The notes under the pieces: generated by a model
The model's database searches: none
What the model was told of the DNA's origin: nothing
What the model saw: only the letters and a program-made list of their open reading frames with translations
Assembly: GCA_022826805.1 (NCBI GenBank)
Contig: JAJDUH010000045.1
Coordinates: 83,562-147,561 of the forward strand
Source: Candidatus Poribacteria bacterium
Lineage (GTDB): Bacteria > Poribacteria > WGA-4E > WGA-3G
Direction: 5' to 3'
DNA: 64,000 bases
Made by a program: the position numbers and the translations under genes
Shown here: positions 6,501 through 64,000 of the stretch, piece after piece
How positions within the stretch are numbered: position 1 is the first letter of the stretch
How the letters are laid out: every line of letters starts with the position of its first letter

Positions 6501-7988
6501 GTCTTAGAAGATGGTGAGTTGCGACAATACGATTTTCCGGGTGCTGTTGAAACGTTTATATACGGTATCAGTGATGCGACAGGTGCTATGACAGGTCATA
6601 TAATAGATGCTTCTGGCGTTCGCCGCGGATTCTCTGGAGACACAATCGTTGAGGTCCCCGGAGCATCGGCAACTAATGCCGATTTTGTGAGTTGGACGGG
6701 CCACATCGTGGGCAGTTACACGGATTCTGCAGGTACATATCATGCCTACATGCTTGGTGTGACGGGTAGGTTTTTATATATCGACCTTCCAGAAGCCCTA
6801 AATCTGGAATACTTTTTTCTCCACGGTCTCAACGAGTCAAGAAGTGTCGTTGGCCGTGCGAAGGAGGTGGGTGATGTTTCGCGCACTTATGTCGGTAACC
6901 CGCTCAACCTACGCGAGTTGCAGTTTCCGGGCAGCATCAGTACGGAAGGCTGGAATATTAATCAAGACGGCTCTGTCGTCGGACACTATGATTCAGCTGA
7001 TGGACGCAGACACGGATTTATCGCAAGACCTACCTCACAAGTGGAAGCGGAAAATTATAGCAACACCTATAGTGTCACGTTGTCTAAAGGTTTGAACATG
7101 CTTTCTGTGCCATTGGCATCTCCAACACCCATGACTGCCAAGAGCCTTGTCGCCATGACAGGGGCAACAACCGTCATCAAGCTTGATGCGGTAAAACAGC
7201 ATTTCATCGCCTGGACGCCGGGGGCACCCAATGACGGTTTCCCAATTGAAGGTGGAAAAGGTTATATCGTCAATGTCCCACAATCCCGTAATTTCGCATT
7301 CGTCGGAGCACCCTGGACAAATCCAACCGAGGCTCCTGCAGCATCACCTGCCATTACCCCCTTGATAAGGGGGGACAGGGGAGTTACCCAAGAAGCGTGG
7401 GCATTCGTTGTCAGTGGGCATCTAAAAGGCAAACCCGCTTTTGACGGCTACGAGGTAACCGTCCGTAACCTAAGAACAAACAGCAGGATAACCGCTTCAG
7501 TGCAAGGGGATTACTTCGCTGCTGCAACTGCCGACTTAACGCGGCGGAGCGTCGTTCAAGTTGGAGACGTGGTTGAGTTACGCGTCATCGGTCCCGCTGG
7601 AAACGCTGAATCACAAACCCTCAGATTTGAAGTGACTCCTGAGCATCTATCAAACGCCGTTTTGTCCGTCAGGCTTGATAACATCGGCAAACCGACACAG
7701 AATCTGTTGATGCAGAACTACCCGAATCCATTTAACCCAGAGACATGGATTCCATATCAACTCTCGGAAGACAGTCCTGTATCCATATCTATTTACGATA
7801 CAACGGGTAGGTTAGTTCGCACACTTTCGCTCGGTTTCCAATCCGCAGGCTTCTACAATAATCGGAGTCGTGCTGCGTATTGGGATGGACGCAATGAACT
7901 CGGCGAACGCGTTGCCAGTGGTATCTATTTTTACCAGTTGACAACACCTGCCTTCCAGCAGACGCGGCGGCTCGTCATTTTGAAGTAA
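3597..7988 (+). CDS. Secreted repeat protein: 4 x ~280-aa HAF-like/beta-propeller modules plus C-terminal FlgD-Ig/T9SS-like sorting domain
   Basis: Signal peptide; four YTFE(T/S)IDVP...GWNINQDGSVVGHY..RHGFIA modules; tail NYPNPFNPETWIPYQL...YWDGRN..GERVASGIYFYQL. Confidence 0.75.
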   Translation: MQNKIKTSILFYMFTLFLCLNCFFVENTVAQDNAESADALASANYTFETIDVPGVEFLQLSASSDFGDYAGSTRSANGEKIVAFTLIDGIFTTYDFPGSKNTYFFALGNNGDAAGHYEDSDGLFHGVVLKDGELQQYDFPGAVQTELSGISDSTGALTGNFIDAAGVRRGFSADEIIEAPGATETYADFVNSSGGMVGSYVDAEGLFHPYIRTPTGRFASLDLPSAANLEYFFVHGINDTRVVVARAKQVDGIPGTLVGTFQEGLKELKVPGSVSTEGYNINQDGSIVGHYDSADGRRHGFIARPITDTAAPINDQPVATPSELNYTFESIDVPSVDFLAVTASSDFEDYAGYTRSADGEKEAAFTLIDGIFTTYDFPDSQKTHFYALGNNGQAAGYYQDSNGLSHGIVLQDGELRQYDFPGAVETEIYGISDATGALTGNFIDAAGVRRGFSGDKIVEAPEALATYADFVNASGRMVGSYIDTEGLYHPYMRQPTGKFISLDLPGAGQFEYFFVHGINDVGVLVSRSKRIGGVPRTHVGSLQYGLHEFQFPGSVSTEGWNINQDGSVVGHYTSADGRTHGFIARPAEDTTPPIDDPPAIAPANASYTFETIDVPGVDFLAVTASSDFEDYAGNTPSADGEKMVGFTLIDGVFTTYDFPGSQGTYFYALGNNGVAAGHYQDSDGLYHGVLLGEDGELHQYDFPGAVETQIFGYSDATGKLTGSMVDASGVRRGFSGETIVEYPGALETYADFVSGLGNIVGSYVDAAGTYHAYLRGSGGSFATLDLPLEGELEYFFLHGLNDGLIAVGRGKAVGDVPRTYVGNPLNLQELRVPDSAGTEGWNINQDGSVVGHYDSPDGRRHGFIAKPIESTDPRTSNRRIGAPAGYTFESIDVPGVDFLAVTASSDFEDYAGNTQSADGEKEVAFTLIDGVFTTYDFPGAQGTYFYALGNNGVAAGHYKDSDGLYHGVVLEDGELRQYDFPGAVETFIYGISDATGAMTGHIIDASGVRRGFSGDTIVEVPGASATNADFVSWTGHIVGSYTDSAGTYHAYMLGVTGRFLYIDLPEALNLEYFFLHGLNESRSVVGRAKEVGDVSRTYVGNPLNLRELQFPGSISTEGWNINQDGSVVGHYDSADGRRHGFIARPTSQVEAENYSNTYSVTLSKGLNMLSVPLASPTPMTAKSLVAMTGATTVIKLDAVKQHFIAWTPGAPNDGFPIEGGKGYIVNVPQSRNFAFVGAPWTNPTEAPAASPAITPLIRGDRGVTQEAWAFVVSGHLKGKPAFDGYEVTVRNLRTNSRITASVQGDYFAAATADLTRRSVVQVGDVVELRVIGPAGNAESQTLRFEVTPEHLSNAVLSVRLDNIGKPTQNLLMQNYPNPFNPETWIPYQLSEDSPVSISIYDTTGRLVRTLSLGFQSAGFYNNRSRAAYWDGRNELGERVASGIYFYQLTTPAFQQTRRLVILK

Positions 7989-8177: not shown

Positions 8178-10895
8178 ATGCCTACTCATACCAAAACTAA
8201 TTTTTTATGTTACACGTTTACGTTGCTTATATGCCTCAATTCCTTTTTCCTCAGCAATACCGAGGCACAAACCGATAATGAACCAACGCCTCCATCCCCT
8301 GGATTCACCTATACTTATGAGAGTATTGATGTTCCGGGTGTAGACTTTTTAGCGTTGACAGCGAGTAGCGACTTTGAGGATTACGCAGGCTACACACAGA
8401 GTGCGGATGGTGAAAAAATGGTCGGTTTTACACTCATAGACGGCGTTTTTACGACGTATGACTTCCCCGGTTCACAGAACACCTATTTCTATGCGCTTGG
8501 CAATAATGGGTTAGCTGCGGGACACTACGAAGATAGCGAGGGTCTTCATCATGGGGTCGTCTTAGAAGATGGTAAGTTACGGCAATATGATTTGCCGGGT
8601 GCTGTCGAAACGGAGATATACGGTTACAGTGATTCGAGGGAGGTCTTGACGGGTGGTTTTATAGATGCCTCTGGTGTTCGCCGTGGCTTCTCAGGGGATA
8701 TAATAATTGAGGTCCCCGAGGCAACAGCAACGTATGCCGACTTTGTGAATGCGGCAGGCTCTGTCACAGGAAGTTACATAGATGCTGACGGGCTATATCA
8801 TCCTTATGTGCGTACCTTGAATGGCACGTTTGTTTTTCATACCTATCTGGAGCCATCCAATCTCGAATATTCTTTTGTGCACGGGATCACTGATACAAGG
8901 ATTATCGTTACTCGCGCCAAAGCGGTGGGGGACCGCCCGCGCTCCTATGTCGGCACATCCCAGCACGGATTATCTGAATTGGAGTTTCCGGGCAGCGTTA
9001 GCACGGAGGGCTGGAATATCAATCAGGACGGCTCTGTCGTCGGTTACTACGACTCGGCAGATGGACGTAGACACGGGTTTATCGCAAAACCCACTGCGGA
9101 AACTGCTGCAAGATTCGAAGATATAGCTTATCTCCCAGTCCCTGAATTCAACTATATTTATGAGAGTATTGACGTTCCGGGCGTAGACTTTTTAGCGTTG
9201 GGTGCGAGTAGCGACTTTGAGGATTACGCCGGAAACACGCGGAGTGCGGATGGCGAAAAAATCGTCGGCTTTACACTCATTGATGGTGTTTTTACGACCT
9301 ACGATTTCCCGGGTGGACAGAACACTTATTTCTATGCGCTTGGCAATAATGGGGTAGCTGCGGGACACTACGAGGATAACGACGGTCTTTACCATGGGGT
9401 CATCTTAGAAAATGGCGAGTTACGGCAATACGATTTTCCAGGTGCCGTTGAAACAGAGATATACGGTTTTAGTGATGCAACGGGTGCCTTGACGGGTAAT
9501 TTTATAGGTGCTGATGGCGTTCGCCGTGGATTCTCAGGAGACAAAATCGTTGAGGCGCCCGAGGCAATAGCAACGTATGCCGATTTTGTGAATGCGGCAG
9601 GCTCTATCATCGGCAGCTTCGTAGATGCTGACGGGCTATATCACGCATTCGCACTTACCCCGACTGGCAGGTTTATAATTCTGGACTATCTGGAACCCTC
9701 CAATCTGGAATACTTTTTCTTGCACGGGATTAACGATGCAGAAGGCAGCGGTGTGTTTGTGATTGCCCGAGCCAAAGCGGCTGGGGACCGTCCGCGCTCT
9801 TATGTCGGCTCATACCTATATGGGCTACATGAGTTGGAGTTTCCAGGCAGCGTTAGCACGGAGGGCTGGAATATCAATCAGGACGGTTCTGTCGTCGGAC
9901 ACTATGACTCACCCGATGGGCGCAGACACGGTTTTATCGCAAAACTCTCTACCGCGGCAGAGCGCACGCATTTTAGCAACGCCTATACTGTCACGCTCTC
10001 GAAAGGGTTGAATATGCTGTCCGTGCCGTTGGCACCTTTGAGACCGATGACCGCGAAATCACTCGTTGCAATGACAGGCGCGACAACCGCCATCGCGTTC
10101 GACGCGCCAAACCAACAGTTCGTCGCATGGACACCAGACGCGCCGAATGATGGTTTCCCAATTGAGGGTGGACAAGGCTATATCGTCAATGTGCCAGAAA
10201 CCCGCAATTTCGCTTTCGTCGGCGCACCCTGGACAGATCCAACAGAAGAAACCGCTGCAGCTCCATCTGCCATTACTTCTTTACAGGGGGTTGCCCAAGA
10301 AGCATGGGCATTCGTTGTCAGTGGACACTTGGAAGGGAAAACAACGTTTGACGGCTACAAGGTAATCGTTCGGAACCTGCGAACAAATAGTACGATAACC
10401 GCTTCGGTGCAAGGGGATTACTTCGCTGCTGCAACCGCAGACTTAACGCGGCGGAGCGTCGTTCAAGTCGGAGATGTCGTTGAAGTACGCGTCATCGGTC
10501 CCGATGGAAACTTTGAATCACAAACGCTCAGATTTGAAGTGACACCTGAGCATCTATCAAACGCCGTTTTGTCTGTCAGACTTGATAACATCGGCAAACC
10601 GACACAGAATCTGTTGATGCAGAACTACCCGAATCCGTTTAACCCAGAAACATGGATTCCATATCAACTCTCTGAGGACAGCCCTGTATCAATATCCATT
10701 TATGATACAACCGGTAGGTTGATTCGCACACTTTCACTCGGTTTCCAATCCGCAGGCTTCTACAATAATCGGAGTCGTGCGGCGTATTGGGATGGACGCA
10801 ATGAACTCGGCGAACGCGTTGCGAGTGGCATCTATTTTTACCAATTGATGACACCCGCCTTCCAGCAGACACGGCGGATGCTCATTTTGAAATAG
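8178..10895 (+). CDS. Paralogous secreted repeat protein with 2 modules and the same C-terminal domain
   Basis: Two YESIDVPG modules; C-terminal region nearly identical to 3597..7988. Confidence 0.75.
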   Translation: MPTHTKTNFLCYTFTLLICLNSFFLSNTEAQTDNEPTPPSPGFTYTYESIDVPGVDFLALTASSDFEDYAGYTQSADGEKMVGFTLIDGVFTTYDFPGSQNTYFYALGNNGLAAGHYEDSEGLHHGVVLEDGKLRQYDLPGAVETEIYGYSDSREVLTGGFIDASGVRRGFSGDIIIEVPEATATYADFVNAAGSVTGSYIDADGLYHPYVRTLNGTFVFHTYLEPSNLEYSFVHGITDTRIIVTRAKAVGDRPRSYVGTSQHGLSELEFPGSVSTEGWNINQDGSVVGYYDSADGRRHGFIAKPTAETAARFEDIAYLPVPEFNYIYESIDVPGVDFLALGASSDFEDYAGNTRSADGEKIVGFTLIDGVFTTYDFPGGQNTYFYALGNNGVAAGHYEDNDGLYHGVILENGELRQYDFPGAVETEIYGFSDATGALTGNFIGADGVRRGFSGDKIVEAPEAIATYADFVNAAGSIIGSFVDADGLYHAFALTPTGRFIILDYLEPSNLEYFFLHGINDAEGSGVFVIARAKAAGDRPRSYVGSYLYGLHELEFPGSVSTEGWNINQDGSVVGHYDSPDGRRHGFIAKLSTAAERTHFSNAYTVTLSKGLNMLSVPLAPLRPMTAKSLVAMTGATTAIAFDAPNQQFVAWTPDAPNDGFPIEGGQGYIVNVPETRNFAFVGAPWTDPTEETAAAPSAITSLQGVAQEAWAFVVSGHLEGKTTFDGYKVIVRNLRTNSTITASVQGDYFAAATADLTRRSVVQVGDVVEVRVIGPDGNFESQTLRFEVTPEHLSNAVLSVRLDNIGKPTQNLLMQNYPNPFNPETWIPYQLSEDSPVSISIYDTTGRLIRTLSLGFQSAGFYNNRSRAAYWDGRNELGERVASGIYFYQLMTPAFQQTRRMLILK

Positions 10896-14033: not shown

Positions 14034-14270
14034 TTTAAGTTGACTTTTGAAATAGACGTTTGCTAAACTTAATAGAATGAACACTCCTTAAAAAAAGAAA
14101 ACTTGTGTAGGCAATGCGTATATTATCAATATCTTCAGCGTCAAAACTCCATGCTGAATCAACGGTATCAATGCCTATAGGCATTGCCCGAGCGTGGAGA
14201 TGTAGATGCTGTATTTGAATATTAAATCTAAAAAAAGGGACATTTGCGTAAAAGGTGTAGTATAATTGTA

Positions 14271-14360
14271 AGAGCACAGTTGGTAGAGAATAGCAGCCTC
14301 GTCGCAAGGCGAAGTCTCTACCACAACCGACTGCTATTGGGAACTCTGCTGGAGTCAACT
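14271..14360 (+). ncRNA. Candidate structured 5' leader (pseudoknot) upstream of tnpB
   Basis: TATAAT at 14261; TGGTAGAGA/TCTCTACCA 9-bp stem, crossing ATAGCAG/CTGCTAT stem, internal GCAA-tetraloop hairpin. Confidence 0.45.
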
Positions 14361-15575
14361 ATGCGAAATACCACACATAAACTTTTTCATGATAAGTCAT
14401 TGAAGCGTCTGCACAATGACCTAAATATCATAGGTATTGTCAGAAATCATTTCATTGCCTTGTCGATGCGATATTACCGTCGATACTGTAAAAGGCTTTC
14501 GTATTCTAAAATGTCGAAGCATTTAACGAAACTTAAGAGGCTTCCGAAGTATGCGTATTGGCGTATCCCCTACGCGTGGAGTGTTCAAAATATGCTCAAG
14601 CACTTGGCACGGAGTTTCAGAGAAATGCGAACGCTCAAAAGAGGACATCCACAGTTCAAGAAGTGTAAAAAACATAAAGGCATGGCGTTCTCTGGCGAAC
14701 AGGTTGTGATAGAACAAGTTTGCGAGAAACAAAAACATAAGAGAAATCATCCGACGTCTAAGGTTCGATTGAATGAACACTGGTATCATTTTGCGTTGCA
14801 CCGTAAGATACAAGGCGAAATCAAACAGGTTCAAGTTCATAGAGACGCACTCGGAGATATGTATATCACGTTCACTGAAGACTATAGCGAAGTTATACCT
14901 GAACCCAAGACGGGTAAAGCCGAAGGGTTTGACATGGGTATCAAAGACTTCCTGACTGGCAGTGACGGTCATAGATATACCTCTCCGATGTTCTACAAAC
15001 ACAATGCTAAAGAGTTAGCGAAAGCACAAAAGGCATATTCTCGTAAGGTCAAAGGCTCTAATAACCAAGAGCGTTCTCGTAAGCAAGTTGCTCGTATTCA
15101 TAAGAGAACTGCGAATCAAAGAGCAGACCACCATTGGAAACTTGCGATAGAGTTGTGCCGTAAGTTTGATATACTGTTCTTTGAAGACCTGAACCTTGAC
15201 GGAAACCTGAAACGTCTGTGGGGCAAACAGGTGTCTGACCTTGCCTTCGGTGAGTTTCTTGAAAAACTCAAGTGGCAATCGAAAAAACGGATCCGCTCGG
15301 TGCTGCAAATAGGGAAGTGGATACCTTCGACAAAAGCGTGTTGTGTTTGTGGGCATCATAATAAAAACCTAACCCTCGCAGATAGACGCTGGACGTGTCA
15401 AAGTTGTCATACCGATCTTGACCGTGACCAGAACGCTGCGATAAACATTCTTAGGGAGGGGGTAGCCTCCTTTGGGTTAGCAGCTGTAAGCCCTATAGTT
15501 GTGTCTAACATGATCGTAGGCATCTGTGTTGAAGCGTCCAGTCGGCTTCTGCATTCCACAAGTGCTTCTGCTTAA
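14361..15575 (+). CDS. tnpB: RNA-guided endonuclease TnpB
   Basis: RuvC-I GFDMG, RuvC-II FEDLN, Zn ribbon CCVCG..CQSC, RuvC-III DRDQNAAINI; ATG 14361 follows a GGAG RBS (ORF track start is 14244). Confidence 0.92.
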   Translation: MRNTTHKLFHDKSLKRLHNDLNIIGIVRNHFIALSMRYYRRYCKRLSYSKMSKHLTKLKRLPKYAYWRIPYAWSVQNMLKHLARSFREMRTLKRGHPQFKKCKKHKGMAFSGEQVVIEQVCEKQKHKRNHPTSKVRLNEHWYHFALHRKIQGEIKQVQVHRDALGDMYITFTEDYSEVIPEPKTGKAEGFDMGIKDFLTGSDGHRYTSPMFYKHNAKELAKAQKAYSRKVKGSNNQERSRKQVARIHKRTANQRADHHWKLAIELCRKFDILFFEDLNLDGNLKRLWGKQVSDLAFGEFLEKLKWQSKKRIRSVLQIGKWIPSTKACCVCGHHNKNLTLADRRWTCQSCHTDLDRDQNAAINILREGVASFGLAAVSPIVVSNMIVGICVEASSRLLHSTSASA

Positions 15576-17900: not shown

Positions 17901-18254
17901 ATGAGATCCATTTTCTGGATTGGAGACTCTAAGAAGAGGCTTTTAACATTTCCGTCCAGTGTGCGGCGCGAGATTGGTTTCGCATTAGAAAGAGCACAGG
18001 GAGGCTTAACACATCATCAAGCGAAACCCTTACGAGGGTTCTCGGGTGTATATGAGATTGTTAGCAATTATGCTCGGGATACCTATCGAGCAATTTACAT
18101 AGTCAATCTGGGGAAAATGATTTATGTGCTTCATTGCTTCCAGAAGAAATCGAAATTTAGGATAAAGACCCCAAAGAAAGAGATTGATTTAATCCGTAGC
18201 CGTTTGAATTCAGCAAAAGCACTTGTTCAAAAGGAGAACAAAAATGACGAATGA
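17901..18254 (+). CDS. RelE/HigB-like toxin (Gp49/DUF891 family)
   Basis: KPLRG..GVYEI..DTYRAIY..IYVLHCFQKKS..TPKKEIDLI. Confidence 0.85.
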   Translation: MRSIFWIGDSKKRLLTFPSSVRREIGFALERAQGGLTHHQAKPLRGFSGVYEIVSNYARDTYRAIYIVNLGKMIYVLHCFQKKSKFRIKTPKKEIDLIRSRLNSAKALVQKENKNDE

Positions 18255-18579
18255 AAAAATCGAATATGAAGTGGGAAGCGGCAATGTATTCAAGGATTTA
18301 GAAATTCCGAATCCAGAGGAATATCTCGCGAAAGCCCGCCTCGCTTTAATAATCTATGACATTATAACCGAAAAAAAACTTAAGCATGGCAAGGCAGCCA
18401 AGCAGCTTGGTATTAGTAAGCCTGAAGTCAAAGCACTTCTAAATGGTAGACTCGACGATTTTTCGATCGAACGTCTGTTTGCATTGCTCAGAAAATTGGA
18501 TCGAGATATTGAAATTGTCGTCCGCGCGAGACCTGCTGATACATCGCCTGCCGAGATTAGCATCTCGACTGCTGTCTGA
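18244..18579 (+). CDS. HigA-like XRE HTH antitoxin (HTH_37)
   Basis: GSGNVFKDL, AAKQLGISKPEV and FSIERL; overlaps toxin gene. Confidence 0.85.
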   Translation: MTNEKIEYEVGSGNVFKDLEIPNPEEYLAKARLALIIYDIITEKKLKHGKAAKQLGISKPEVKALLNGRLDDFSIERLFALLRKLDRDIEIVVRARPADTSPAEISISTAV

Positions 18580-21421: not shown

Positions 21422-24400
21422 ATGCCGAAACTCAATCTAAAACCCAATCACAAAGCGATTCGGGATTACTACGCCACGCTGCAGCAGTATCAACAACACG
21501 ACATCACACACGAAGGCGCCGTCAGTTCCCCTTTTGATACACTCTTGCAAACCTGCGCAAAACAGGTAAACGCCACACTTGTCCCCCAATGGACAATGCA
21601 GACCGCAGCAGGAACCCGTATCATCATTGACGGCGCAATCCTCGACGAATACGGTCTCCCCTTCGCCTATTGGGAAGCAAAAGATATAGATGACGACCTC
21701 GCCAAGTCGGTGCAAGAAAAACGTGAGGCAGGCTACCCACTCGACAACATCTGTTTCCAAACACCGCAGCATGCCATCTTATATCAGAACGGAGCAGAGG
21801 TTCTCAATGTAGACATCACCGACCCTGCCCACCTGATTGCGGTACTCCAATACCTATTCGCTTACGTCCCACCCGCACTCGACAACTGGCAGACCGCCGT
21901 CTCCGATTTCAGAGAACACGTACCCGACCTGGCAAGTAAACTAAAGGAACTCATCGAGCAACGCCACGAAACCGATCCAGCATTCAAGAAGGCGTTTGCC
22001 AACTTTTACGAAACCTGCCGTACCTCCATTAACCCCGACCTCTCACAAGATGCTGTCGAGGAGATGCTCATTCAGCACATCCTCACCGAACGCATTTTCC
22101 GCACCGTCTTTAACAACTCCGCTTTCACCCGCCGAAACATCATTGCACGCGAGATTGAAAACGTGGTTGATGCGCTTATCCGTCAGGCGTTCAGCCGCGA
22201 GGAGTTTCTCAAACCGTTAGATCGGTTCTATATCGCTATCGAGCAAGCCGCGATGCTCTGCCGAGACTTCGCCCAAAAACAGCACTTCCTCAACACGTTT
22301 TACGAGAAATTTTTCCAAGGGTTCTCTGAGGATGTAGCGGACACACACGGCATCGTCTATACACCGCAACCGATTGTCGATTTCATAGTGAAAAGCGTGG
22401 CGCATATCTTGGAAACCGAATTCGGTCGTTCGCTTTCGGATACCGGCGTACATATCATCGATCCGTTCGTCGGGACGGGCAATTTCATTGTCCGACTCAT
22501 GCAGGAGATCCAAGGCACGGCGTTAGAGGAGAAATACCGCCACGAGTTGCACTGTAACGAGGTAATGCTCCTGCCCTACTACATCGCCAGCTTGAACATC
22601 GAACAGGAATTCTTCCAACGCACGGGGACGTATCTACCCTTTGAAGGCATCGCACTTGCGGACACATTTGAGTTGCTTGAACAGGAGCAAGGCGAACTCT
22701 TTACGCGTGAAAACACCGAACGGGTAAAGAAACAGAAGGCAACGGATATGTTCGTCGTCATCGGCAATCCACCTTATAACATGGGACAGATTAATGAAAA
22801 CGACAATAACAAAAATCGCAAGTATGAGATAATGGACGATCGGGTTGCAGACACTTATGTAAAAGACTCCAAAGCCACGCTAAAAAATAAACTCTACGAT
22901 CCGTATGTAAAAGCGATTCGATGGGCATCTGACCGGATTGGAGAAGAAGGGGTTGTCGCCTTTGTGACGAATAACGGTTTTCTTGACCGCACCGCGTTTG
23001 ACGGCATGCGGAAACACCTCACAGAAGATTTTGATACGATTTACATTTTGGATCTGGGTGGAAACGTCCGTCAGAATCCGAAGTTGTCGGGAACAACACA
23101 TAACGTCTTCGGAATTCAGGTCGGGGTGAGCATCAATCTTTTCATTAAAAAAAGTGCCGAGAAGACAGATTCAAAACCCGCCGAAATCTTTTACGCGTGT
23201 GTTGATGAATTCTGGCGGAAAGAGGAAAAATATCACCACCTTGACTCAAAACAACATTACCGAAATATTGAATGGCAGCAGATAATACCTGACAGGCGAT
23301 ATACATGGCTCACGGAAGGACTTCATGCTGAGTTTGATACCTTCCTACCGATGGGAAGCAAAAAAACAAAAAATAGAAGGGATGGAAAGACTATTTTTAA
23401 CCTATATTCTCTGGGAGTTGCTACAAATAGAGATAGTTTGGTTTATTCTTTCGATCTGGATTTGCTCCAAGAGCGGGTTCACACATTCATTGAAATATAC
23501 AACACTACTGTTGACAAGAAGCGAAGGCACAACCCTAAAGTACCGGTTGAAAGCCTCATTGATACGACTGACCCATGTATCAAATGGACTCGTCAAGTTA
23601 AAGCATCACTCAAAAAACTGGAGCTAAGTAGTTATGAAAATGCTCATTTCCGGACGGCGTTGTATCGTCCGTTCTGTCAGAGACATCTCTACTTTGATAA
23701 CTTTTGGAACGAAGAGCGTTCTCAACAGTACCGAATTTTTCCAACATCTGAAACGGAATCCGAAAATCGAGTGATTTGTGTGCCGAGTAAGGGCGGACGA
23801 ACTAATTTTTGGTGCTATTTAACAAACGTAATCCCGAATTTGACAATAACTTCCGTAGATGGAACTCAATGCTTCCCCTTCTACACCTACGACGAGGACA
23901 GCACAAACCGACAAGAGAACATCACCGACTGGGGATTGACGGAATTCCGAACGCACTACAACGACGACACCATCACCAAGTGGGACATCTTTCACTATAC
24001 CTATGCCCTCTTGCACCACCCCATCTATCGCGAGAAATACGAGAAGAACCTCAAGCGCGACCTACCACATATCCCATTCGCCGAAGATTTTGGGGGGTTT
24101 GCCGCGGCAGGTGCGCAGCTGGCAGACCTCCACGTCAATTACGAATCCGTTCCAAAATATGATGGATTGAAATACATTGAAACGCCGGGGATGAGGGTAG
24201 ATTGGCGTGTTGAGAAGATGAGATTGTCCAAAGACAAGACGCAGTTAAAATACAACGACTTCCTGACGCTGGACGGCATCCCCGCGGAGGTTTATGATTA
24301 TCGGCTTGGTACCCGTTCTGCCTTGGAGTGGGTTGTGGATCAGTATCGTGTCAAAACCGACAAACGGAGCGGCATCGTCAACGACCCAAACCGTGAGACG

Positions 24401-24490
24401 GAACCGCGGTATATCGTAGACCTCATCGCCCGCGTCATCACCGTCAGTTCGGAGACGGTGGAGATTGTCAAAAATTTGCCTGCCTTGTAG
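21422..24490 (+). CDS. Single-chain restriction-modification enzyme (Type IIG / helicase-less ISP-like): nuclease, N6-adenine MTase and TRD
   Basis: N-terminal IDG..WEAK PD-(D/E)xK-like motif; GIVYTP, DPFVGTG (motif I), GNPPY (motif IV); C-terminal YRPF and YRLG..SALEW segments. Confidence 0.85.
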   Translation: MPKLNLKPNHKAIRDYYATLQQYQQHDITHEGAVSSPFDTLLQTCAKQVNATLVPQWTMQTAAGTRIIIDGAILDEYGLPFAYWEAKDIDDDLAKSVQEKREAGYPLDNICFQTPQHAILYQNGAEVLNVDITDPAHLIAVLQYLFAYVPPALDNWQTAVSDFREHVPDLASKLKELIEQRHETDPAFKKAFANFYETCRTSINPDLSQDAVEEMLIQHILTERIFRTVFNNSAFTRRNIIAREIENVVDALIRQAFSREEFLKPLDRFYIAIEQAAMLCRDFAQKQHFLNTFYEKFFQGFSEDVADTHGIVYTPQPIVDFIVKSVAHILETEFGRSLSDTGVHIIDPFVGTGNFIVRLMQEIQGTALEEKYRHELHCNEVMLLPYYIASLNIEQEFFQRTGTYLPFEGIALADTFELLEQEQGELFTRENTERVKKQKATDMFVVIGNPPYNMGQINENDNNKNRKYEIMDDRVADTYVKDSKATLKNKLYDPYVKAIRWASDRIGEEGVVAFVTNNGFLDRTAFDGMRKHLTEDFDTIYILDLGGNVRQNPKLSGTTHNVFGIQVGVSINLFIKKSAEKTDSKPAEIFYACVDEFWRKEEKYHHLDSKQHYRNIEWQQIIPDRRYTWLTEGLHAEFDTFLPMGSKKTKNRRDGKTIFNLYSLGVATNRDSLVYSFDLDLLQERVHTFIEIYNTTVDKKRRHNPKVPVESLIDTTDPCIKWTRQVKASLKKLELSSYENAHFRTALYRPFCQRHLYFDNFWNEERSQQYRIFPTSETESENRVICVPSKGGRTNFWCYLTNVIPNLTITSVDGTQCFPFYTYDEDSTNRQENITDWGLTEFRTHYNDDTITKWDIFHYTYALLHHPIYREKYEKNLKRDLPHIPFAEDFGGFAAAGAQLADLHVNYESVPKYDGLKYIETPGMRVDWRVEKMRLSKDKTQLKYNDFLTLDGIPAEVYDYRLGTRSALEWVVDQYRVKTDKRSGIVNDPNRETEPRYIVDLIARVITVSSETVEIVKNLPAL

Positions 24491-24697
24491 GAGCGAGTAT
24501 TTTTGCTTGGGTGTTTCCCTGCCCGCGATAAAGCATATCACACATTTTCTCCGTAGGAGCGAGCTTTGCTCGCGATATTGTATACTACATCTGTTTTCTG
24601 TAGGAGCGAGTGTTTTTGCTTGGGCGTTTCTTCATGCTCGCGAGCTTTTCCTTCTGTTCCTCGCGAGCTTTTCCTTGTGTTACCCGCGAGCTTCCTC
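24487..24697. repeat. Cluster of GTAGGAGCGAG REPs downstream of the RAYT, plus short CGCGAGCTT tandem units
   Basis: REPs start at 24487, 24553 and 24600. Confidence 0.8.
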
Positions 24698-25169
24698 ATT
24701 CCATCTCAAACTTACACCGCCAAAACGGATAATCCCTCGCAGCCTTTACCAATCCTGACCGCACTGGATTCTGATAACAATATCGAATAATGGTATTCAA
24801 TGATTCATCCTGCCGGATACCGTGTTCATGGTAAGCAGCCTGCCAAAGTGAACCGCTACGTTCCAAGTAAGCGTTAACCTGTTTCGCTGTATGGCTTTTG
24901 AAGGATTGTATAAGCCTCGACAATGTTTGTTTACCGCCGAGTTGGATAACAGCATGGATATGATCTGGCATCACAATCACACAAAACCATCTGAGTCGCT
25001 CTTTCGTTTCGAGCCAGTCAAAGGCTTGAAAAATGATGTCCGAAATTTTAGGAGTTGCGAGCAGAGGTTTTTTGTTAAGCGTGGCGAGCGTGAGGTAATA
25101 GTAGGTACCAGGTATTGAGTGTCTCCCTTTGCGGAGTTGCCGGTGTCCTCGGGTGGGCGTTTGTTTCAT
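24696..25169 (-). CDS. REP-associated tyrosine transposase (RAYT, Y1 HUH)
   Basis: YYLT, VMPDHIH (HUH), LWQ..YHEH and Y..QNPV motifs; flanked by inverted REPs. Confidence 0.88.
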   Translation of the reverse strand: MKQTPTRGHRQLRKGRHSIPGTYYYLTLATLNKKPLLATPKISDIIFQAFDWLETKERLRWFCVIVMPDHIHAVIQLGGKQTLSRLIQSFKSHTAKQVNAYLERSGSLWQAAYHEHGIRQDESLNTIIRYCYQNPVRSGLVKAARDYPFWRCKFEME

Positions 25170-59305: not shown

Positions 59306-60481
59306 CTATCCAAACTCTTTATCCAACTCCTCCTGACTCATCTCCTGTACAAATTCAGGTGTAATTTCCAGGTCTTTTCCGTCTTCAAAAACCTCCTTTT
59401 CAAACGCTCTTATCAGGGCATTACGACACCGTTTATTCATGTTTCTCGGTGTTCCGCGTTGTAAGTTAGACATGAGTGCCCTGAGTGCCTCCTCTGTAAA
59501 GGGGAAATAAGGTGTTTTGGGTTCTTCTTGGGTTCTGTAGTGAGAGAGAAGCTCACGAACATATTGGAGCATCTTTTCTTGATCTCTCACTTCATGAAAG
59601 AAAATCTGTCGGGTAATCCGATCAGTAAGATAACCTCCGAGAATCAGTTCAATTTCCTCATATGCCTCCGGCGAAGTAAGCGTGAAATTCATGAAAAGTG
59701 TGAAGAAATAGGGAAGTCGATCGACCAATTCACGCAACCCTTGGCTGAAAGGACGGTACTGCGGAGGTGTAAAATAGATGAAATTCTCCATTTCATCTAT
59801 CCATAGGCAAAACCGATTGTGCTCGGCTACGTCAGTGGAGTCAGATAATCCAATAAGACAACGAAAAACGCCTGCCAATATCCGAAAGTAATCTTGTGTT
59901 TTCTCAATATTCCGATTTAAGCCAAGTTTTCGCAATTCAGTAGTTGTGCATTTGCGAAAGAAGTACGCACTTAGCGGCGAGCTAGCCCCCGGAGAAATTG
60001 GCGAAGCCTCAAATAATTTAAGCAGCGCGTTCGCGAAATCACCACTTACCACTGTTTGACGCAGATTTTGCTCAACCATCTCACGTCCAACAGATTCCAC
60101 GTTTTTTTGCACCGCTTTCCCTATTCGCTCAAGTCGAATCTGTTCCATGACATCCAGATAAAAATCTCGGGCAGGATTCCGAGTTTCAGTAGGTGTCTGA
60201 ACTCTGAGAACTTCTACATCCCGCACGCTCGGTGATGTCTCAGGAATATTTTCGTCAGAACTAAAGAAAAGTGAAGCATGTGTTTTGCCTCCACCAATAG
60301 AACCTGGGCATAATACCACTTGCGTTGGTGCGGATGCTTTGGCTTCTTGAAATACACTATTAAATTCATCTTTGAGTCCATCCATACCTGCCCAAATTGC
60401 CTGTTTAGGGTCAGCAGGAGGATTAACCATAAAGGGGTTTTCTCGTAAACCAACTATATTCCAATTCATCGAGAATTTCAT
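59306..60481 (-). CDS. P-loop/AAA+ ATPase of unknown system
   Basis: GLRENPF, Walker A GSIGGGKT, Walker B LWIDEME, PFTEEAL..GTPR. Confidence 0.75.
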   Translation of the reverse strand: MKFSMNWNIVGLRENPFMVNPPADPKQAIWAGMDGLKDEFNSVFQEAKASAPTQVVLCPGSIGGGKTHASLFFSSDENIPETSPSVRDVEVLRVQTPTETRNPARDFYLDVMEQIRLERIGKAVQKNVESVGREMVEQNLRQTVVSGDFANALLKLFEASPISPGASSPLSAYFFRKCTTTELRKLGLNRNIEKTQDYFRILAGVFRCLIGLSDSTDVAEHNRFCLWIDEMENFIYFTPPQYRPFSQGLRELVDRLPYFFTLFMNFTLTSPEAYEEIELILGGYLTDRITRQIFFHEVRDQEKMLQYVRELLSHYRTQEEPKTPYFPFTEEALRALMSNLQRGTPRNMNKRCRNALIRAFEKEVFEDGKDLEITPEFVQEMSQEELDKEFG

Positions 60482-61161
60482 AGTCCACCTCTAAACTTTT
60501 TCGTCCGTGGTAATGCCTTGAGCATAATATGTAACTGCTCGAGATAACGGCTATACGTACGTAAACGCTTCGTCATTTCCCTTTTTGTCTCCTCATTTGT
60601 TTTGTCTTCTGTTTCTTCCTCCGTTTCTTTCTCAGCCGCCATGTTAGTGTTTACATTTCGTAAAGCCGAACTAGCCTGTGCATACGGCCATTTTGGAAAC
60701 ATGACGAGATAGATATGCAGCAGCAATTCCAATGAAGTCCAAGTTTTTGTCGTTTTGAAGCGACTCTCGTACCACTTAATCAAATTTTGGTGTGCTTTCA
60801 TATCATCCGTCAACATGATAACTTGTCCGGTGTATCGTCTCCGTCCCAGATAAAGTGCGAGCGCGCAGTTGAAACGTTCACCACGATTGCGATTTGGGTC
60901 GTCGGTTGGCGAAAATCGGTTAAAAATCATGTTCTCGTAATCTTGCTCATGAGGAAAATATCGTCTTGCTCGACGCACGAATTGTAACATCGGTTTGTCA
61001 TAATTCCCTAATTTACTCCTGTGTCGCCTTACTTCGTGTGGAATCTCTCGTGAGACTTGCACATGGAAAAGCTGATTTAAAATATCAATAATATGGGTTT
61101 GCCCTACATAAACCTCATGTATGTTTATGAGTGAAGATGTATCAGGAATCAGAATATCCAT
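60478..61161 (-). CDS. PIN-like domain protein (putative nuclease)
   Basis: ILIPDTSSLI, E, GE and LTDD acidic pattern; 4-nt overlap with the ATPase gene. Confidence 0.55.
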   Translation of the reverse strand: MDILIPDTSSLINIHEVYVGQTHIIDILNQLFHVQVSREIPHEVRRHRSKLGNYDKPMLQFVRRARRYFPHEQDYENMIFNRFSPTDDPNRNRGERFNCALALYLGRRRYTGQVIMLTDDMKAHQNLIKWYESRFKTTKTWTSLELLLHIYLVMFPKWPYAQASSALRNVNTNMAAEKETEEETEDKTNEETKREMTKRLRTYSRYLEQLHIMLKALPRTKKFRGGL

Positions 61162-61176
61162 AAATCTTGGGTTAAG

Positions 61177-62250
61177 TTAGAAAAAAATAAGATAGGATTC
61201 ATTCTCTCGGTGGGAAAATCGGACTGCATATCGTGCATTAGACTCTTTAGAGAACGCATTTAGATCTGCATGAAGTTCCTCAAGGTTCACCGCGATTCCC
61301 TTATCCGTTGTGAGAAGGAGTGCCATATAAATAAGTGCTGGATATAAAGAAATTTTCGGGGTAGGTGTACTCCGGAGCGTTTTAAAAACTTGAAAAATGA
61401 GTTTGTAAAGCAGTTCTTTTCTCTCTAACTTCTGTATTTCTGTCCATTGTTGATCAATCGTGCCCATAAGCACCTGCCCAGCAATGCCAAAGAATTTCTT
61501 CCGCAACCACACTGGGCTTGTGTGAAATGTCGGAAGATACCGGGAAAACCGGGTACCCATCTCTGTTAATCGAGACTGTCTCTTTCCAGCATTCTCAACT
61601 GAGACCAAGCCGAGGTCTGCCAACCAATGAATTCGCGGTGGCACGATATTTTCAATAGAACGTTTTGATTCTTCCTTCCAATGTGCCACGCGGTTTCGGA
61701 CTGCCAAGATGTCACGTGCAACATGTTCTTCCGCTGTCAACATACGGGTCTGCAATTGCTGAAGATAAAACGTAGGAAAAGCATTTTGCAAATCAGAAAG
61801 GGATTGAGAACCACCTTCAACTAACATTTGAATAACTGTGAAAAGCCGATCACTGTCTTTCACCAAAAGCCAATACAGATATGCACAACGTTCCGCGTTA
61901 GTCAGTTCAAACGGATTTTGATCGGGTGCTTGGTGGAGAAAGGGCAGCAATGTTTTCCCAAACCGCGTAACACGGCACGCGCCAGCGATTCGTCCTATAA
62001 GCCCCAACGAAACAGCGAAATTCGTATAGCGTCTCGGAGCAGCTTGCCTGCGTGTTGCTTTAATAAATCCTTGCGGATTTATGTAATTCTCAAAATTTTG
62101 CTTGTGATTAAGACTCCATTTTTCAAGTTGAGTATAGAGCACAGATTCACTTAGCGTTTTATGCTCAAGCAACCGTAGAATTGCAGAGACATAACCGAGG
62201 CGGCGAACAAGCGTATTAATCTCTGTGATCCCAACTTCGTATTTAGGCAT
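61177..62250 (-). CDS. Hypothetical protein with two winged-helix-like segments
   Basis: YTNFAVSLGLI...VTRFG and WLADLGLV...LTEMG patterns. Confidence 0.5.
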   Translation of the reverse strand: MPKYEVGITEINTLVRRLGYVSAILRLLEHKTLSESVLYTQLEKWSLNHKQNFENYINPQGFIKATRRQAAPRRYTNFAVSLGLIGRIAGACRVTRFGKTLLPFLHQAPDQNPFELTNAERCAYLYWLLVKDSDRLFTVIQMLVEGGSQSLSDLQNAFPTFYLQQLQTRMLTAEEHVARDILAVRNRVAHWKEESKRSIENIVPPRIHWLADLGLVSVENAGKRQSRLTEMGTRFSRYLPTFHTSPVWLRKKFFGIAGQVLMGTIDQQWTEIQKLERKELLYKLIFQVFKTLRSTPTPKISLYPALIYMALLLTTDKGIAVNLEELHADLNAFSKESNARYAVRFSHRENESYLIFF

Positions 62251-62483
62251 TTGGCAATCTACCTACTGAGGGTAATACTAGGAAACTTAAAAAAATGTGA
62301 CACATCGCTTAGCGGAGTTACCTACACTCACGGTATTACAGAAGTAAGAAAACCCTATTAACCCTATGCTACTGCGACTAACAATATAATAATACCAAAT
62401 TTTTGAAAAAATGTCAAAAAAATGTGCTTAATTTTGACAATCAGCATTGATTTTTTTTTGAAATATAACGTATAATATGTTAT

Positions 62484-63446
62484 ATGGGGAATTTTTTAAT
62501 TGCTGATCATACAAAGCCACTAAAGTTGACAAGTCCCTCTTTCTCAGGACACCAAACTTTTCCTTTTCGGTATACATGGCTGAAAAAAGGGGTCGATGCT
62601 GTAGCAGATCCGACCTTTTCATTTTCATCGGAAGATGCTTCTGTTACCTTAGGAGTAGGAAAAAACATGGTAAGCTCTATTCGGCACTGGTGTAGTGTGG
62701 CAAGACTCATCAAAACAGATAACGGCCAACGCGATAGACTTGTTCCTACCGAGTTCGGCAAAATCATTTTCAATAATAAAGACGGATTTGATCCGTACCT
62801 TGAGGACCCTGCTACATTATGGTTGATTCATTGGCAGATAGCAACCAACATCAATCAGGCAACCACGTGGTATTGGGCGTTTAACATTTTAAGGGAAAAT
62901 CGCTTCGCACTGGACACATTCAAAAAGGAATTGTACGAGTGGGCCCGGCGGGCGTATGAGGATGGACAGCAAATGGGAAAAAAATTAAGAACTTTCTCTG
63001 ACAATACATTGCAACGGGATGTCAATTGCTTTATTCGAACCTACTGTCAATCACGACACAACCATGGTGTCGTTGAGGAAAGTTTTGACTGCCCCATAGC
63101 TGAATTAAATTTAATCTTTGAATTGCCAGATGACAACGAGTATGAATTTCAACGAGGCGAAAAAGAATATCTACCGGGCGAAGTTATTGCAGCAACGATA
63201 GATGCCTTTTGGACTCTTCGTTTTCCAAAAAGGGATACCTTACCATTTTCAGAACTCATGTACGCCCCCTTAAGTCCAGGACGAATCTTCAGATTAGACG
63301 AAGATACAATGACCACATATCTCGAAGACCTTTTACAACTTACGGACAGCGCATTAGAATATGACGAAAGCGAAGGTTTAAAACAGGTCTATCGACGACA
63401 GAGTGATTTAGATCCTACGGGACTTCTAAAGAGGTATTATGGATAG
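62484..63446 (+). CDS. DUF4007 family protein (SspB-like)
   Basis: FSGHQTFPFRYTWLKKG, LGVGKNMV.SIR.W, DPYLED..TLWLIHW. Confidence 0.85.
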   Translation: MGNFLIADHTKPLKLTSPSFSGHQTFPFRYTWLKKGVDAVADPTFSFSSEDASVTLGVGKNMVSSIRHWCSVARLIKTDNGQRDRLVPTEFGKIIFNNKDGFDPYLEDPATLWLIHWQIATNINQATTWYWAFNILRENRFALDTFKKELYEWARRAYEDGQQMGKKLRTFSDNTLQRDVNCFIRTYCQSRHNHGVVEESFDCPIAELNLIFELPDDNEYEFQRGEKEYLPGEVIAATIDAFWTLRFPKRDTLPFSELMYAPLSPGRIFRLDEDTMTTYLEDLLQLTDSALEYDESEGLKQVYRRQSDLDPTGLLKRYYG

Positions 63447-64000
63447 TGCCCAATTGTCAGATGTTTTTAAAGTTAAAGGGCGTTTCCAACGTTCTGTTCA
63501 TCTGGAACGCGACTTCTACACGGAAAACGCGTTAGAGGGTTACATTGTGACCGTTAAAGTACGAGAGACCCTCACTCGCCTTATCGCTGCGCAGGAGAAT
63601 GATGCAACATCAAAAGCGTGGTCACTCACGGGTCCCTACGGTTCTGGAAAATCAGCGTTCGCGCTTTTCGCTGCGAAGCTGCTCGGGGATCCGAAGGCCT
63701 CCACAACCCAACACGCTCTGGAATTACTTAAAGACAGCGATGTTACATTATATGAGCGTTTTCAGAGTATAAATGGGAACAAGATAAAGGCTTCAATTGG
63801 TTTCTGTCCGGTGCTCATCTCTGGCGAGCGCGCACCGATTACACGCTCGCTCCTGCGAGGATTAGAACATGGGCTTAAAACCTTCGGTATAACCTCACGG
63901 CACTCGCTCCGGAAAGACATTCAAAAACTCTTGAAAACAGAGGCAAACGGCAATCTCCTGCAGGCAACTGAAATCACTGATCTTTTTAAATCCGCAACAC
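63439..64000 (+). CDS. Large ATPase (SspC/BrxC-like), truncated by the window end; absent from the ORF track
   Basis: Hand translation MDSAQLSDVFKVKGRFQRSVHLERD...AWSLTGPYGSGKS (Walker A); overlaps the DUF4007 stop. Confidence 0.8.
   Translation, partial: MDSAQLSDVFKVKGRFQRSVHLERDFYTENALEGYIVTVKVRETLTRLIAAQENDATSKAWSLTGPYGSGKSAFALFAAKLLGDPKASTTQHALELLKDSDVTLYERFQSINGNKIKASIGFCPVLISGERAPITRSLLRGLEHGLKTFGITSRHSLRKDIQKLLKTEANGNLLQATEITDLFKSAT

Follow-up and report, generated by a model that had tools for sequence, protein, structure and literature searches.

At one end of a 64,000-nucleotide stretch of DNA from Candidatus Poribacteria bacterium (contig JAJDUH010000045.1; the whole stretch is hereafter called the window), three tightly packed genes, here named A, B and C, are transcribed divergently from sspB, a gene of DNA phosphorothioation (PT) modification. 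What is the function of this trio next to a DNA modification system? The comparative analysis presented here indicates that it is probably, if far from certainly, an unnamed three-gene effector ("restriction") module coupled to PT modification. This reading is favoured because of the linkage of the trio to PT genes, its operon fusion with them, the catalytic motifs that it retains and its pattern of turnover.

Organization of the locus

A first-pass annotation, made from the nucleotide letters alone, had described three coupled minus-strand genes separated by a 15-bp gap and a 4-nt overlap, and the open reading frames (ORFs) were found at exactly these coordinates. It had also proposed that they share a 233-bp divergent region with a DUF4007 gene and an ATPase gene. 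These neighbours were identified with Pfam and PADLOC as sspB and sspC, which gives the following map.

59306-60481, minus strand: gene C, 391 amino acids (aa), last gene of the trio
60478-61161, minus strand: gene B, 227 aa, second gene of the trio
61177-62250, minus strand: gene A, 357 aa, first gene of the trio
62251-62483: divergent intergenic region of 233 bp between the trio and sspB, GC content 0.305
62484-63446, plus strand: sspB (Pfam DUF4007, E 3.5e-83; PADLOC SspB, 1.4e-93)
63439-64000, plus strand: sspC, N-terminal 187 aa (PADLOC SspC, 1.2e-42), continuing past the end of the window

The gap between A and B occupies positions 61162-61176 and the overlap between B and C positions 60478-60481. 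In the syntenic loci of other Poribacteria, SspC reaches about 1165 aa and SspD is encoded next. Close homologues bear the names of Candidatus Poribacteria MAG proteins, which identifies the organism as a poribacterium. The block was rightly called AT-richer, since the GC content of 59306-64000 is 0.428 and the minimum among all other 4.7-kb segments of the 64 kb is 0.450. The genes on the 3' side of C encode an FGE-sulfatase-like protein, MutY, and other housekeeping and sugar-related functions; across the Poribacteria loci, the block retains the same FGE-sulfatase and MutY chromosomal neighbours.

Conservation of the cassette and linkage to phosphorothioation genes

Forty related loci (designated by L numbers) were collected from species-representative genomes in one scan with a seven-sequence alignment of C, a sample that depends on two peptide patterns and is therefore biased to relatives keeping them. 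A profile search of the six-frame translations of these loci recovered the complete cassette, A followed by B and then C, in 31 of the 40, distributed over more than ten phyla that include Poribacteria, Cyanobacteriota, Acidobacteriota, Chloroflexota, Pseudomonadota, Thermodesulfobacteriota, Bacteroidota, Chlorobiota, Nitrospirota and Myxococcota. The spacers within the cassette range from -59 to +34 nt in most loci, and the 4-nt overlap between B and C recurs in 11 of them. The incomplete loci comprise one devoid of B (L004), two devoid of A (L020 and L028), a fused remnant (L018), a decaying copy (L030), a lone C paralogue (L037), an interrupted C (L040) and two cassettes cut by contig ends (L031 and L035).

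Co-occurrence with sspBCD had been suggested as a check of the proposed defence module. When this check was run, sspBCD or other PT genes were found within the fetched flank of 25 of the 31 complete trios. In six Poribacteria loci (L001-3 and L005-7), sspB-sspC-sspD is divergent from the trio. In nine others, belonging to the Acidobacteriota, Bacteroidota, Nitrospirota and Myxococcota (L021, L022, L029, L032, L033, L034, L036, L038 and L039), sspB, sspC, sspD, A, B and C are co-directional, and the sspD ORF as called overlaps the A ORF in four of these (L032, L034, L036 and L039). In L013 and L019, the trio is immediately followed by sspB. The association extends to the Dnd type of PT machinery: dndC(DE) is divergent from the trio in L014-17, where DndC was matched by PADLOC in L014 (E 1.9e-196) and L016 (E 2.3e-201) and assigned by likeness only in L015 and L017, and in L026 a 4-nt overlap joins dndC to A. 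Two loci combine the trio with a known effector, in the order SspF-G-H-A-B-C-SspA (L011, from Pseudanabaena sp. 'Roaring Creek') or sspBCD-x-A-B-C-SspFGH (L033). The additional gene of the latter locus, which is from a member of the Blastocatellia, occupies positions 6730-7884 of the plus strand between sspD and A, and its 384-aa product ends in a nucleoside 2-deoxyribosyltransferase-like domain. Among the six complete trios devoid of PT genes, five are on contigs with less than 4 kb of flank on one side.

The proposal of a candidate defence module is thus strengthened by a gene order kept in most loci and by adjacency to PT genes, with which several of the cassettes overlap. The first-pass annotation had left the choice between a PT-dependent and a stand-alone module; of the two, this linkage favours the PT-coupled form.

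The maximum-likelihood tree computed for C groups the Dnd-linked Poribacteria in a single clade (support 100/99), with L026 standing apart and the taxa intermixed. The Ssp label requires 7 changes on this tree, as against 13.3 in shuffles (0 of 500 as low), a clustering that is inflated by labels shared between close kin. This result is read only as an indication that the trio probably changed partner between Ssp and Dnd two or more times, in addition to horizontal transfer. Mixed taxa and changes of partner would be as in horizontally moving defence genes. Signs of turnover point in the same direction: an insertion sequence (DDE_Tnp_1; L003, 6526-7704, minus strand) is inserted between sspB and A, B was deleted from L004, L018 (9831-10606) joins a fragment of A to the C-terminal half of C, and L030 contains a frameshifted SspFGH and a partial B. 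A turnover of the defence type is apparently visible in these four loci.

The other neighbours of the cassette, scanned with PADLOC (88 proteins from 27 loci), are often defence-like and include Mrr-NACHT, STAND, ZorD-like and HNH proteins; L020, L025, L028 and L040 adjoin NACHT/STAND, ZorD-like or AbiL-like genes instead of PT genes. The window itself is not a dense defence island, the genes downstream of the trio being housekeeping genes. Six loci, representing four phyla, also carry beside sspBCD and the trio a gene whose product of about 800 aa matches GHKL/HATPase_c_3 weakly (E about 3e-5) and has no match in PADLOC. The window lacks this gene, which may represent a further associated defence gene. 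Its positions are the following.

L012, 524-2941, minus strand: GHKL-like protein
L029, 11097-13565, minus strand: GHKL-like protein
L032, 11181-13583, plus strand: GHKL-like protein
L036, 11199-13508, plus strand: GHKL-like protein, split
L038, 11180-13636, plus strand: GHKL-like protein
L039, 11107-13584, minus strand: GHKL-like protein

The three proteins of the trio

The trio had been labelled from the sequence as a winged helix-turn-helix (wHTH) protein, a PIN protein and an ATPase. These labels fared unequally: the ATPase is established by Walker motifs conserved in 71 relatives, the PIN assignment is probable and the wHTH label is reduced to weak leads.

The family of protein C comprises 346 clusters at 50% identity (E<=1e-3). 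Its Walker A (GSIGGGKT) and Walker B (LWIDEME) motifs follow the family patterns GxxGxGKT and LWIDExE. Over the 71 sequences, W30, G63, G65, K66, W227, E232 and R288 are invariant, the arginines R288 and R346 are conserved, and the N-terminal region carries the motif L..NPF..PP..WAG. The conserved arginine in the C-terminal lid is presumably sensor-2-like. Pfam matches within the family are AAA_22 (34/71), TniB (14/71), AAA_16 (8/71), BrxC_BrxD (6/71), KAP_NTPase (5/71) and ORC-CDC6-like (5/71), and weak PADLOC matches were obtained with DolB (21/71), BrxD (9/71, best E 2.7e-4) and IetA. The mad8 model matches three of the 71 members and NsnC a single one (E 0.0036). For the C protein of the window itself, the sole Pfam signal is TniB (E 0.0013, below the cut-off), next to a weak TnsC match (E 0.07). 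Because its members match AAA_22, TniB, BrxC_BrxD and ORC-CDC6-like as well as DolB and BrxD, protein C is, by its sequence, an AAA+ ATPase of the ORC/Cdc6/TniB/ExeA/BrxD-like kind with intact motifs.

Protein B consists of a PIN-like core (residues 1-165 approximately) followed by a charged helical tail. The nearest ESM Atlas clusters are a PIN domain-containing protein (0.93), DUF3368 (0.92) and PIN_13 (0.91). Among 22 relatives, D7, E43, G94, E95 and W141 are invariant, and T118 and D119, which belong to an LTDD motif, are found in at least 90%. The acidic set of these relatives is thus composed of conserved D7, E43 and D119 and invariant E95, with no clear fourth aspartate. Pfam matches in this family, all below curated cut-offs, are to PIN_4 (5/22, best E 0.0054) and PIN (1/22, E 0.0015), and the profile of the core has a weak alignment (E 0.14) to the RRP44 PIN domain that spans E43 and the LTDD motif. 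Fused longer forms of B were not found, in a search that is itself weak evidence. B is therefore described as a probable PIN-like nuclease with its acidic residues retained.

Protein A has 137 homologues, all annotated as hypothetical and none with a Pfam domain. Its invariant residues are R16, L38, G61, Y75, D132, W209 and R348. Its nearest ESM Atlas clusters, a weak lead, correspond to FokI recognition domains (0.89). Two separate segments each match the Sso10a winged helix at a sub-threshold level (E 0.37 and 0.15), and the two segments match one another in hhalign (E 0.004). Residues 203-250 approximately give a local hhalign match to the helix-wing of SspB (probability 6%), and the last third of the protein has no match in the PDB profile search. 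From these weak similarities, A is predicted to be the subunit that binds DNA and to contain two or more winged-helix-like units (residues 72-105 and 200-240 approximately).

The divergent promoter region

The two best promoter-like sites of the 233-bp spacer stand back to back. The minus-strand site facing the trio (62417..62389) reads TTGACA-17-TATTAT with an upstream TG and 11/12 matches, and the plus-strand site facing sspB (62447-62476) reads TTGATT-18-TATAAT with 10/12 matches. The total of promoter-like sites over the whole scanned stretch does not exceed that of shuffles (9 vs 7.6). In six Poribacteria loci, the trio promoter block is the best-conserved part of the spacer. About 110-140 nt separate this promoter from the start of A, and the same six loci share conserved blocks, such as GTAGTAGCG and CCCTC.AAATG, in this leader (62251-62388). 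It may serve as a regulatory leader or an operator. No Rfam family matched the leader.

Comparison with known systems

Three or four PT defence effector modules are known, namely SspE, SspFGH, DndFGH and PbeABCD. The trio had been set apart from the known Ssp effectors, and this distinction holds. The libraries searched with its proteins were Pfam, NCBIfam, PADLOC and PHROGs; A, B and C produced nothing above the curated cut-offs of any of them and no PADLOC match at E<=1. Sequence and profile searches of the PDB returned no significant biological match for the trio, the matches to SUWA/WA20 designed proteins (E 8e-4) and to annexin repeats (E 2.8e-5) being taken as helical or low-complexity artefacts.

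The closest formal parallel is SspFGH, also a three-gene cassette adjoining sspBCD, which has a Walker A ATPase and a subunit with an FtsK-like C-terminal region (PMC8092258) and is assumed to damage DNA devoid of PT. Its location is comparable, the trio being 233 bp from sspB and related loci being similarly placed. The SspFGH loci of Polaromonas pPNAP02 and of a Pseudanabaena plasmid (NC_008758.1 and NZ_AP017562.1, from Table S2 of PMC8092258) were used as positive controls, and their products match the PADLOC SspF, SspG and SspH models at E 1e-203 or better, so that these models are present and working. None of the 71 members of the C family matches SspF in PADLOC, and BLASTP and phmmer comparisons of the trio with SspF, SspG and SspH yielded nothing below E 0.04. 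With four-sequence alignments of SspF, SspG and SspH, the hhalign probabilities are 20% for C and SspF (P-loop core only), 0.4% for B and SspG, 0.2% for A and SspG and 0.0% for A and SspH. The sizes differ as well, SspF, SspG and SspH measuring about 610-630, 508-517 and 1621-1811 aa as against 391 (C), 227 (B) and 357 aa (A); the match lengths given for sspF, sspG and sspH in the table cited above are about 1.8, 1.5 and 5 kb. In SspFGH the ATPase gene comes first, and the large SspH at the end has an FtsK/HerA-like ATPase, whereas the ATPase gene of the trio comes last; the two cassettes adjoin one another in L011 and L033. Identity of the trio with SspFGH is ruled out by PADLOC with working controls, by BLASTP and phmmer, by hhalign, by the sizes and by the gene order. 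As a side observation, the C-terminus of canonical SspG matches the PADLOC mad7 model (in L042 only, E 2.4e-5) and the C-terminal ATPase of canonical SspH matches mad8 (L041 and L042, E 1e-22 to 1e-23), which suggests that SspFGH and the MADS system share parts.

SspE, DndFGH and PbeABCD resemble the trio in being encoded beside PT genes and in being thought to discriminate DNA by its PT status. The trio gave no PADLOC match of any kind at E<=1, which would set it apart from SspE, DndFGH and PbeABCD; the PADLOC models PbeC, DndC, DndD and DndE were seen to work on neighbouring proteins, and library models for SspE, DndF/G/H and PbeA/B/D are assumed. To our knowledge, a PIN nuclease paired with a small AAA+ ATPase of the ORC type is a combination that none of these three systems has.

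SspB-SspC has been described as a triple-wHTH DNA binder working with an AAA+ ATPase of the Orc/Cdc6 clade (PMC10853773). The trio may follow the same logic, a multi-wHTH protein associated with an ORC/Cdc6-like ATPase, with a nuclease in place of the sulfur-inserting SspD, but no significant homology was detected and C (391 aa) is far shorter than SspC. Attempts to describe A as an SspB paralogue (hhalign 6%, one helix-wing only) or C as a short SspC (hhalign 41% against the SspC N-terminus, Walker B only) found no support.

No PglZ, PglX or BrxL was found by PADLOC among the 88 scanned neighbours of 27 loci. The BREX-type matches near the trio amount to a BrxP-like fragment in L019 and to secondary BrxP matches of SspD and DndC. 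The BREX core (pglZ, brxC/pglY, and a methyltransferase or BrxP) is accordingly not found around the trio, and the matches of C to BrxD are weak.

Two other systems combine an ATPase with a PIN protein. HEC-03, made of an ABC ATPase and a separate VapC-like PIN protein, gives phage defence experimentally (bioRxiv 10.1101/2024.01.29.577857), and in Menshen (NsnABC) a sensor binds DNA, an ATPase acts as transducer and the effector is PIN-like. Both contain ABC-type ATPases, unlike the AAA+ protein of the trio; in Menshen, the PIN protein is inactive and the sensor is of the ParB/DUF262 type. The trio has no PADLOC match to either model set.

Haloarchaeal relatives of the ATPase

In tblastn searches of plasmids, the C protein of L029 reaches three haloarchaeal plasmids (NZ_CP073372.1, NZ_CP095485.1 and NZ_CP100464.1); the same search gave no match for C of the window, L019, L032 or L026, nor for A and B of L029. 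The haloarchaeal relatives, annotated as BREX system ATP-binding domain-containing proteins, are full-length members of the C family (hidden Markov model E 1e-34 to 2e-40, hhalign 99.8%) and are 20% identical end to end to C of the window, the N-terminal NPF motif included. They occupy the following operons.

L043, 6041-9110: haloarchaeal operon
L044, 6023-9107: haloarchaeal operon
L045, 6021-9113: haloarchaeal operon

On all three plasmids, a DpdA-like protein (tRNA-guanine-transglycosylase-like, 344 aa) is followed by a protein of about 295 aa and by the ATPase, and the queC/folE/queE/queD genes of preQ0 synthesis adjoin the operon. These ATPases belong to the same family as C and are likewise encoded beside DNA-modification genes, but their partners differ: the protein of about 295 aa is unrelated to A, B or SspB, and no homologue of A or B is present in the operon. 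The operon looks like an archaeal 7-deazaguanine DNA-modification module using the ATPase family of the trio. From the PT and 7-deazaguanine contexts together, it follows that the C family recurs with chemically different DNA-modification systems.

Interpretation and alternative explanations

The coupling of the trio to PT modification as a restriction module is supported by the retention of Walker A, Walker B, R288 and R346 in C and of D7, E43 and D119 in B. For complex formation, sensing logic, substrate and anti-phage activity, we infer the following scheme from the observed genes, motifs, order and PT linkage. Protein A would bind DNA through its winged-helix units and read the modification site or the PT status. 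Protein C would bind or hydrolyse ATP as a loader or switch on the DNA bound by A, and would license B, as a metal-dependent nuclease of the PIN type, to cut DNA devoid of the host PT mark. DNA marked by SspBCD, or by DndCDE in other lineages, would be spared. The target of B might be invading DNA or RNA, the latter corresponding to abortive infection, with a slight lean to DNA because A and C look like DNA-handling proteins.

Several observations weigh against this restriction module. PIN domains are nucleases but mostly RNases, so that "restriction of DNA" may be wrong, and the wHTH label of A derives from sub-threshold matches. L020 and L028 contain B and C without A. The trio has an intact SspFGH beside it at L011 and L033, and a decayed copy at L030; it is therefore not simply an alternative to SspFGH, and other nearby effectors may have been missed in a neighbour scan of this size. 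L010, which has full flanks, carries a trio with no PT gene in the surrounding 8-10 kb. In the window, the other flank of the trio is composed of housekeeping genes (FGE-sulfatase, MutY) with no dense defence island. Finally, the haloarchaeal operons would fit a modification or targeting role of the ATPase family at least as well as restriction.

This last point leads to an explanation that is unlikely but deserves attention, according to which the trio assists or regulates modification instead of acting as an effector: A and C would target, load or limit the PT machinery and B would process ends or nicks. DndB, which limits PT, provides a model for such a role. The dndB gene usually sits divergently upstream of dndC, the very position of the trio in L014-17, and no DndB match was found among the scanned neighbours of L014 and L016. 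The frames overlapping with sspD or dndC (L026, L032, L034, L036 and L039) amount to operon fusion, in the three haloarchaeal plasmids the full-length relatives of C are encoded behind a DpdA-like transglycosylase and close to preQ0 genes, and the coexistence of the trio with a complete SspFGH in two loci is also compatible with a regulator. Yet most sspBCD and dnd loci are devoid of the trio, and it is not needed for modification as such because iscS-sspBCD alone gave PT in E. coli (PMC8092258). The Ssp and Dnd systems already possess their own ATPases (SspC, DndD) and DNA binders (SspB, DndE), a conserved and apparently active PIN nuclease would be unexpected in a regulator, and pairing with two mechanistically different PT machineries better fits a reader of the mark.

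Only slightly less plausible than a regulator is an independent defence system that makes no use of the PT mark and merely shares islands with PT genes. It would account for the isolated trio of L010 and for the four loci adjoining NACHT/STAND, ZorD-like or AbiL-like genes, and it has a precedent in DndFGH, argued to be commonly decoupled from DndABCDE (Krishnan et al. 2024, PMC10853773). Against such independence stand the adjacency of PT genes to 25 of the 31 complete trios and the frames overlapping sspD or dndC, an arrangement tighter than mere co-location in an island; the genome of L010, moreover, does carry dndCDE, together with the lone C paralogue of L037, about 690 kb away. Very improbable, lastly, is a mobile-element or toxin-antitoxin-like module without defence function, built either from a TniB-like ATPase and a target selector or around a PIN toxin. 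The TniB and TnsC similarities of C, the low GC content of the block and the fact that PIN is the commonest toxin fold would agree with it. In the window, however, no transposase, integrase, tRNA or terminal repeats border the trio (the repeats detected are short and chance-like), no Rfam family was matched, no small antitoxin-like gene is present, the Poribacteria loci keep their FGE-sulfatase and MutY neighbours, and searches of 72,556 plasmids and 50,697 phages returned nothing for C of the window.

Other features of the window

Further from the trio, the window contains a Type ISP-like restriction-modification gene, a Gp49/HTH_37 pair, a TnpB gene and an IS200 transposase gene. The ORF at 21422-24490 (plus strand, 1022 aa) combines ISP_coupler, N6_Mtase and Type_ISP_C (E 7.7e-98) with no nuclease or helicase part detected, and would be either a truncated Type ISP enzyme or a methyltransferase-only form; an IS200-like Y1 transposase (24696-25169, minus strand) adjoins it. 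At 17901-18579 (plus strand), a Gp49-like (HigB/RelE-type) toxin gene overlaps an HTH_37 antitoxin gene, and the two likely constitute a toxin-antitoxin pair. The ORF at 14244-15575 (plus strand) is TnpB-like, with OrfB_IS605 and a Cas12f1-like TNB domain and no adjoining TnpA. Two long ORFs of the plus strand, 3597-7988 (1463 aa) and 8178-10895 (905 aa), have no Pfam match at E<=1e-8.

Novelty and significance

Wang et al. (2021, PMC8092258) reported that 2,211 of 2,678 sspBCD loci lack both SspE and SspFGH and suggested the existence of undiscovered restriction partners. The interpretation of the trio as an effector fits this figure, as well as the HEC-03 precedent. Krishnan et al. (2024, PMC10853773) list PIN among the nucleases found in Dnd neighbourhoods and describe multi-wHTH proteins that work with Orc/Cdc6 ATPases in other systems. 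Literature searches on Ssp, phosphorothioation and PIN domains brought up no account of the trio, but a 2026 BREX survey (PMC12839542), in which BrxD, PIN, phosphorothioation, SspB, triple-wHTH and DndC all occur, may already list the module. Subject to this caveat, it would be new within a known kind, PT-based modification-restriction.

A compact trio of about 3 kb that tracks Ssp and Dnd genes over more than ten phyla constitutes a testable candidate for one such missing partner. It would also tie a BrxD-like ATPase family to two kinds of DNA modification, which could help to explain the role of ATPases of the BrxD type. If B cuts RNA, the trio would be, as far as we know, the first abortive-infection effector linked to PT. 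More tentatively, and with considerable doubt, the trio may found a widespread class of epigenetic-mark readers, in which a BrxD-like AAA+ protein and a fast-evolving multi-wHTH partner form a portable sensor that is armed here with a PIN nuclease. If so, this sensor would plug into single-strand PT (Ssp) and double-strand PT (Dnd), its ATPase also into 7-deazaguanine modification, and it would explain part of the approximately 84% of sspBCD loci lacking SspE and SspFGH (Wang et al. 2021).

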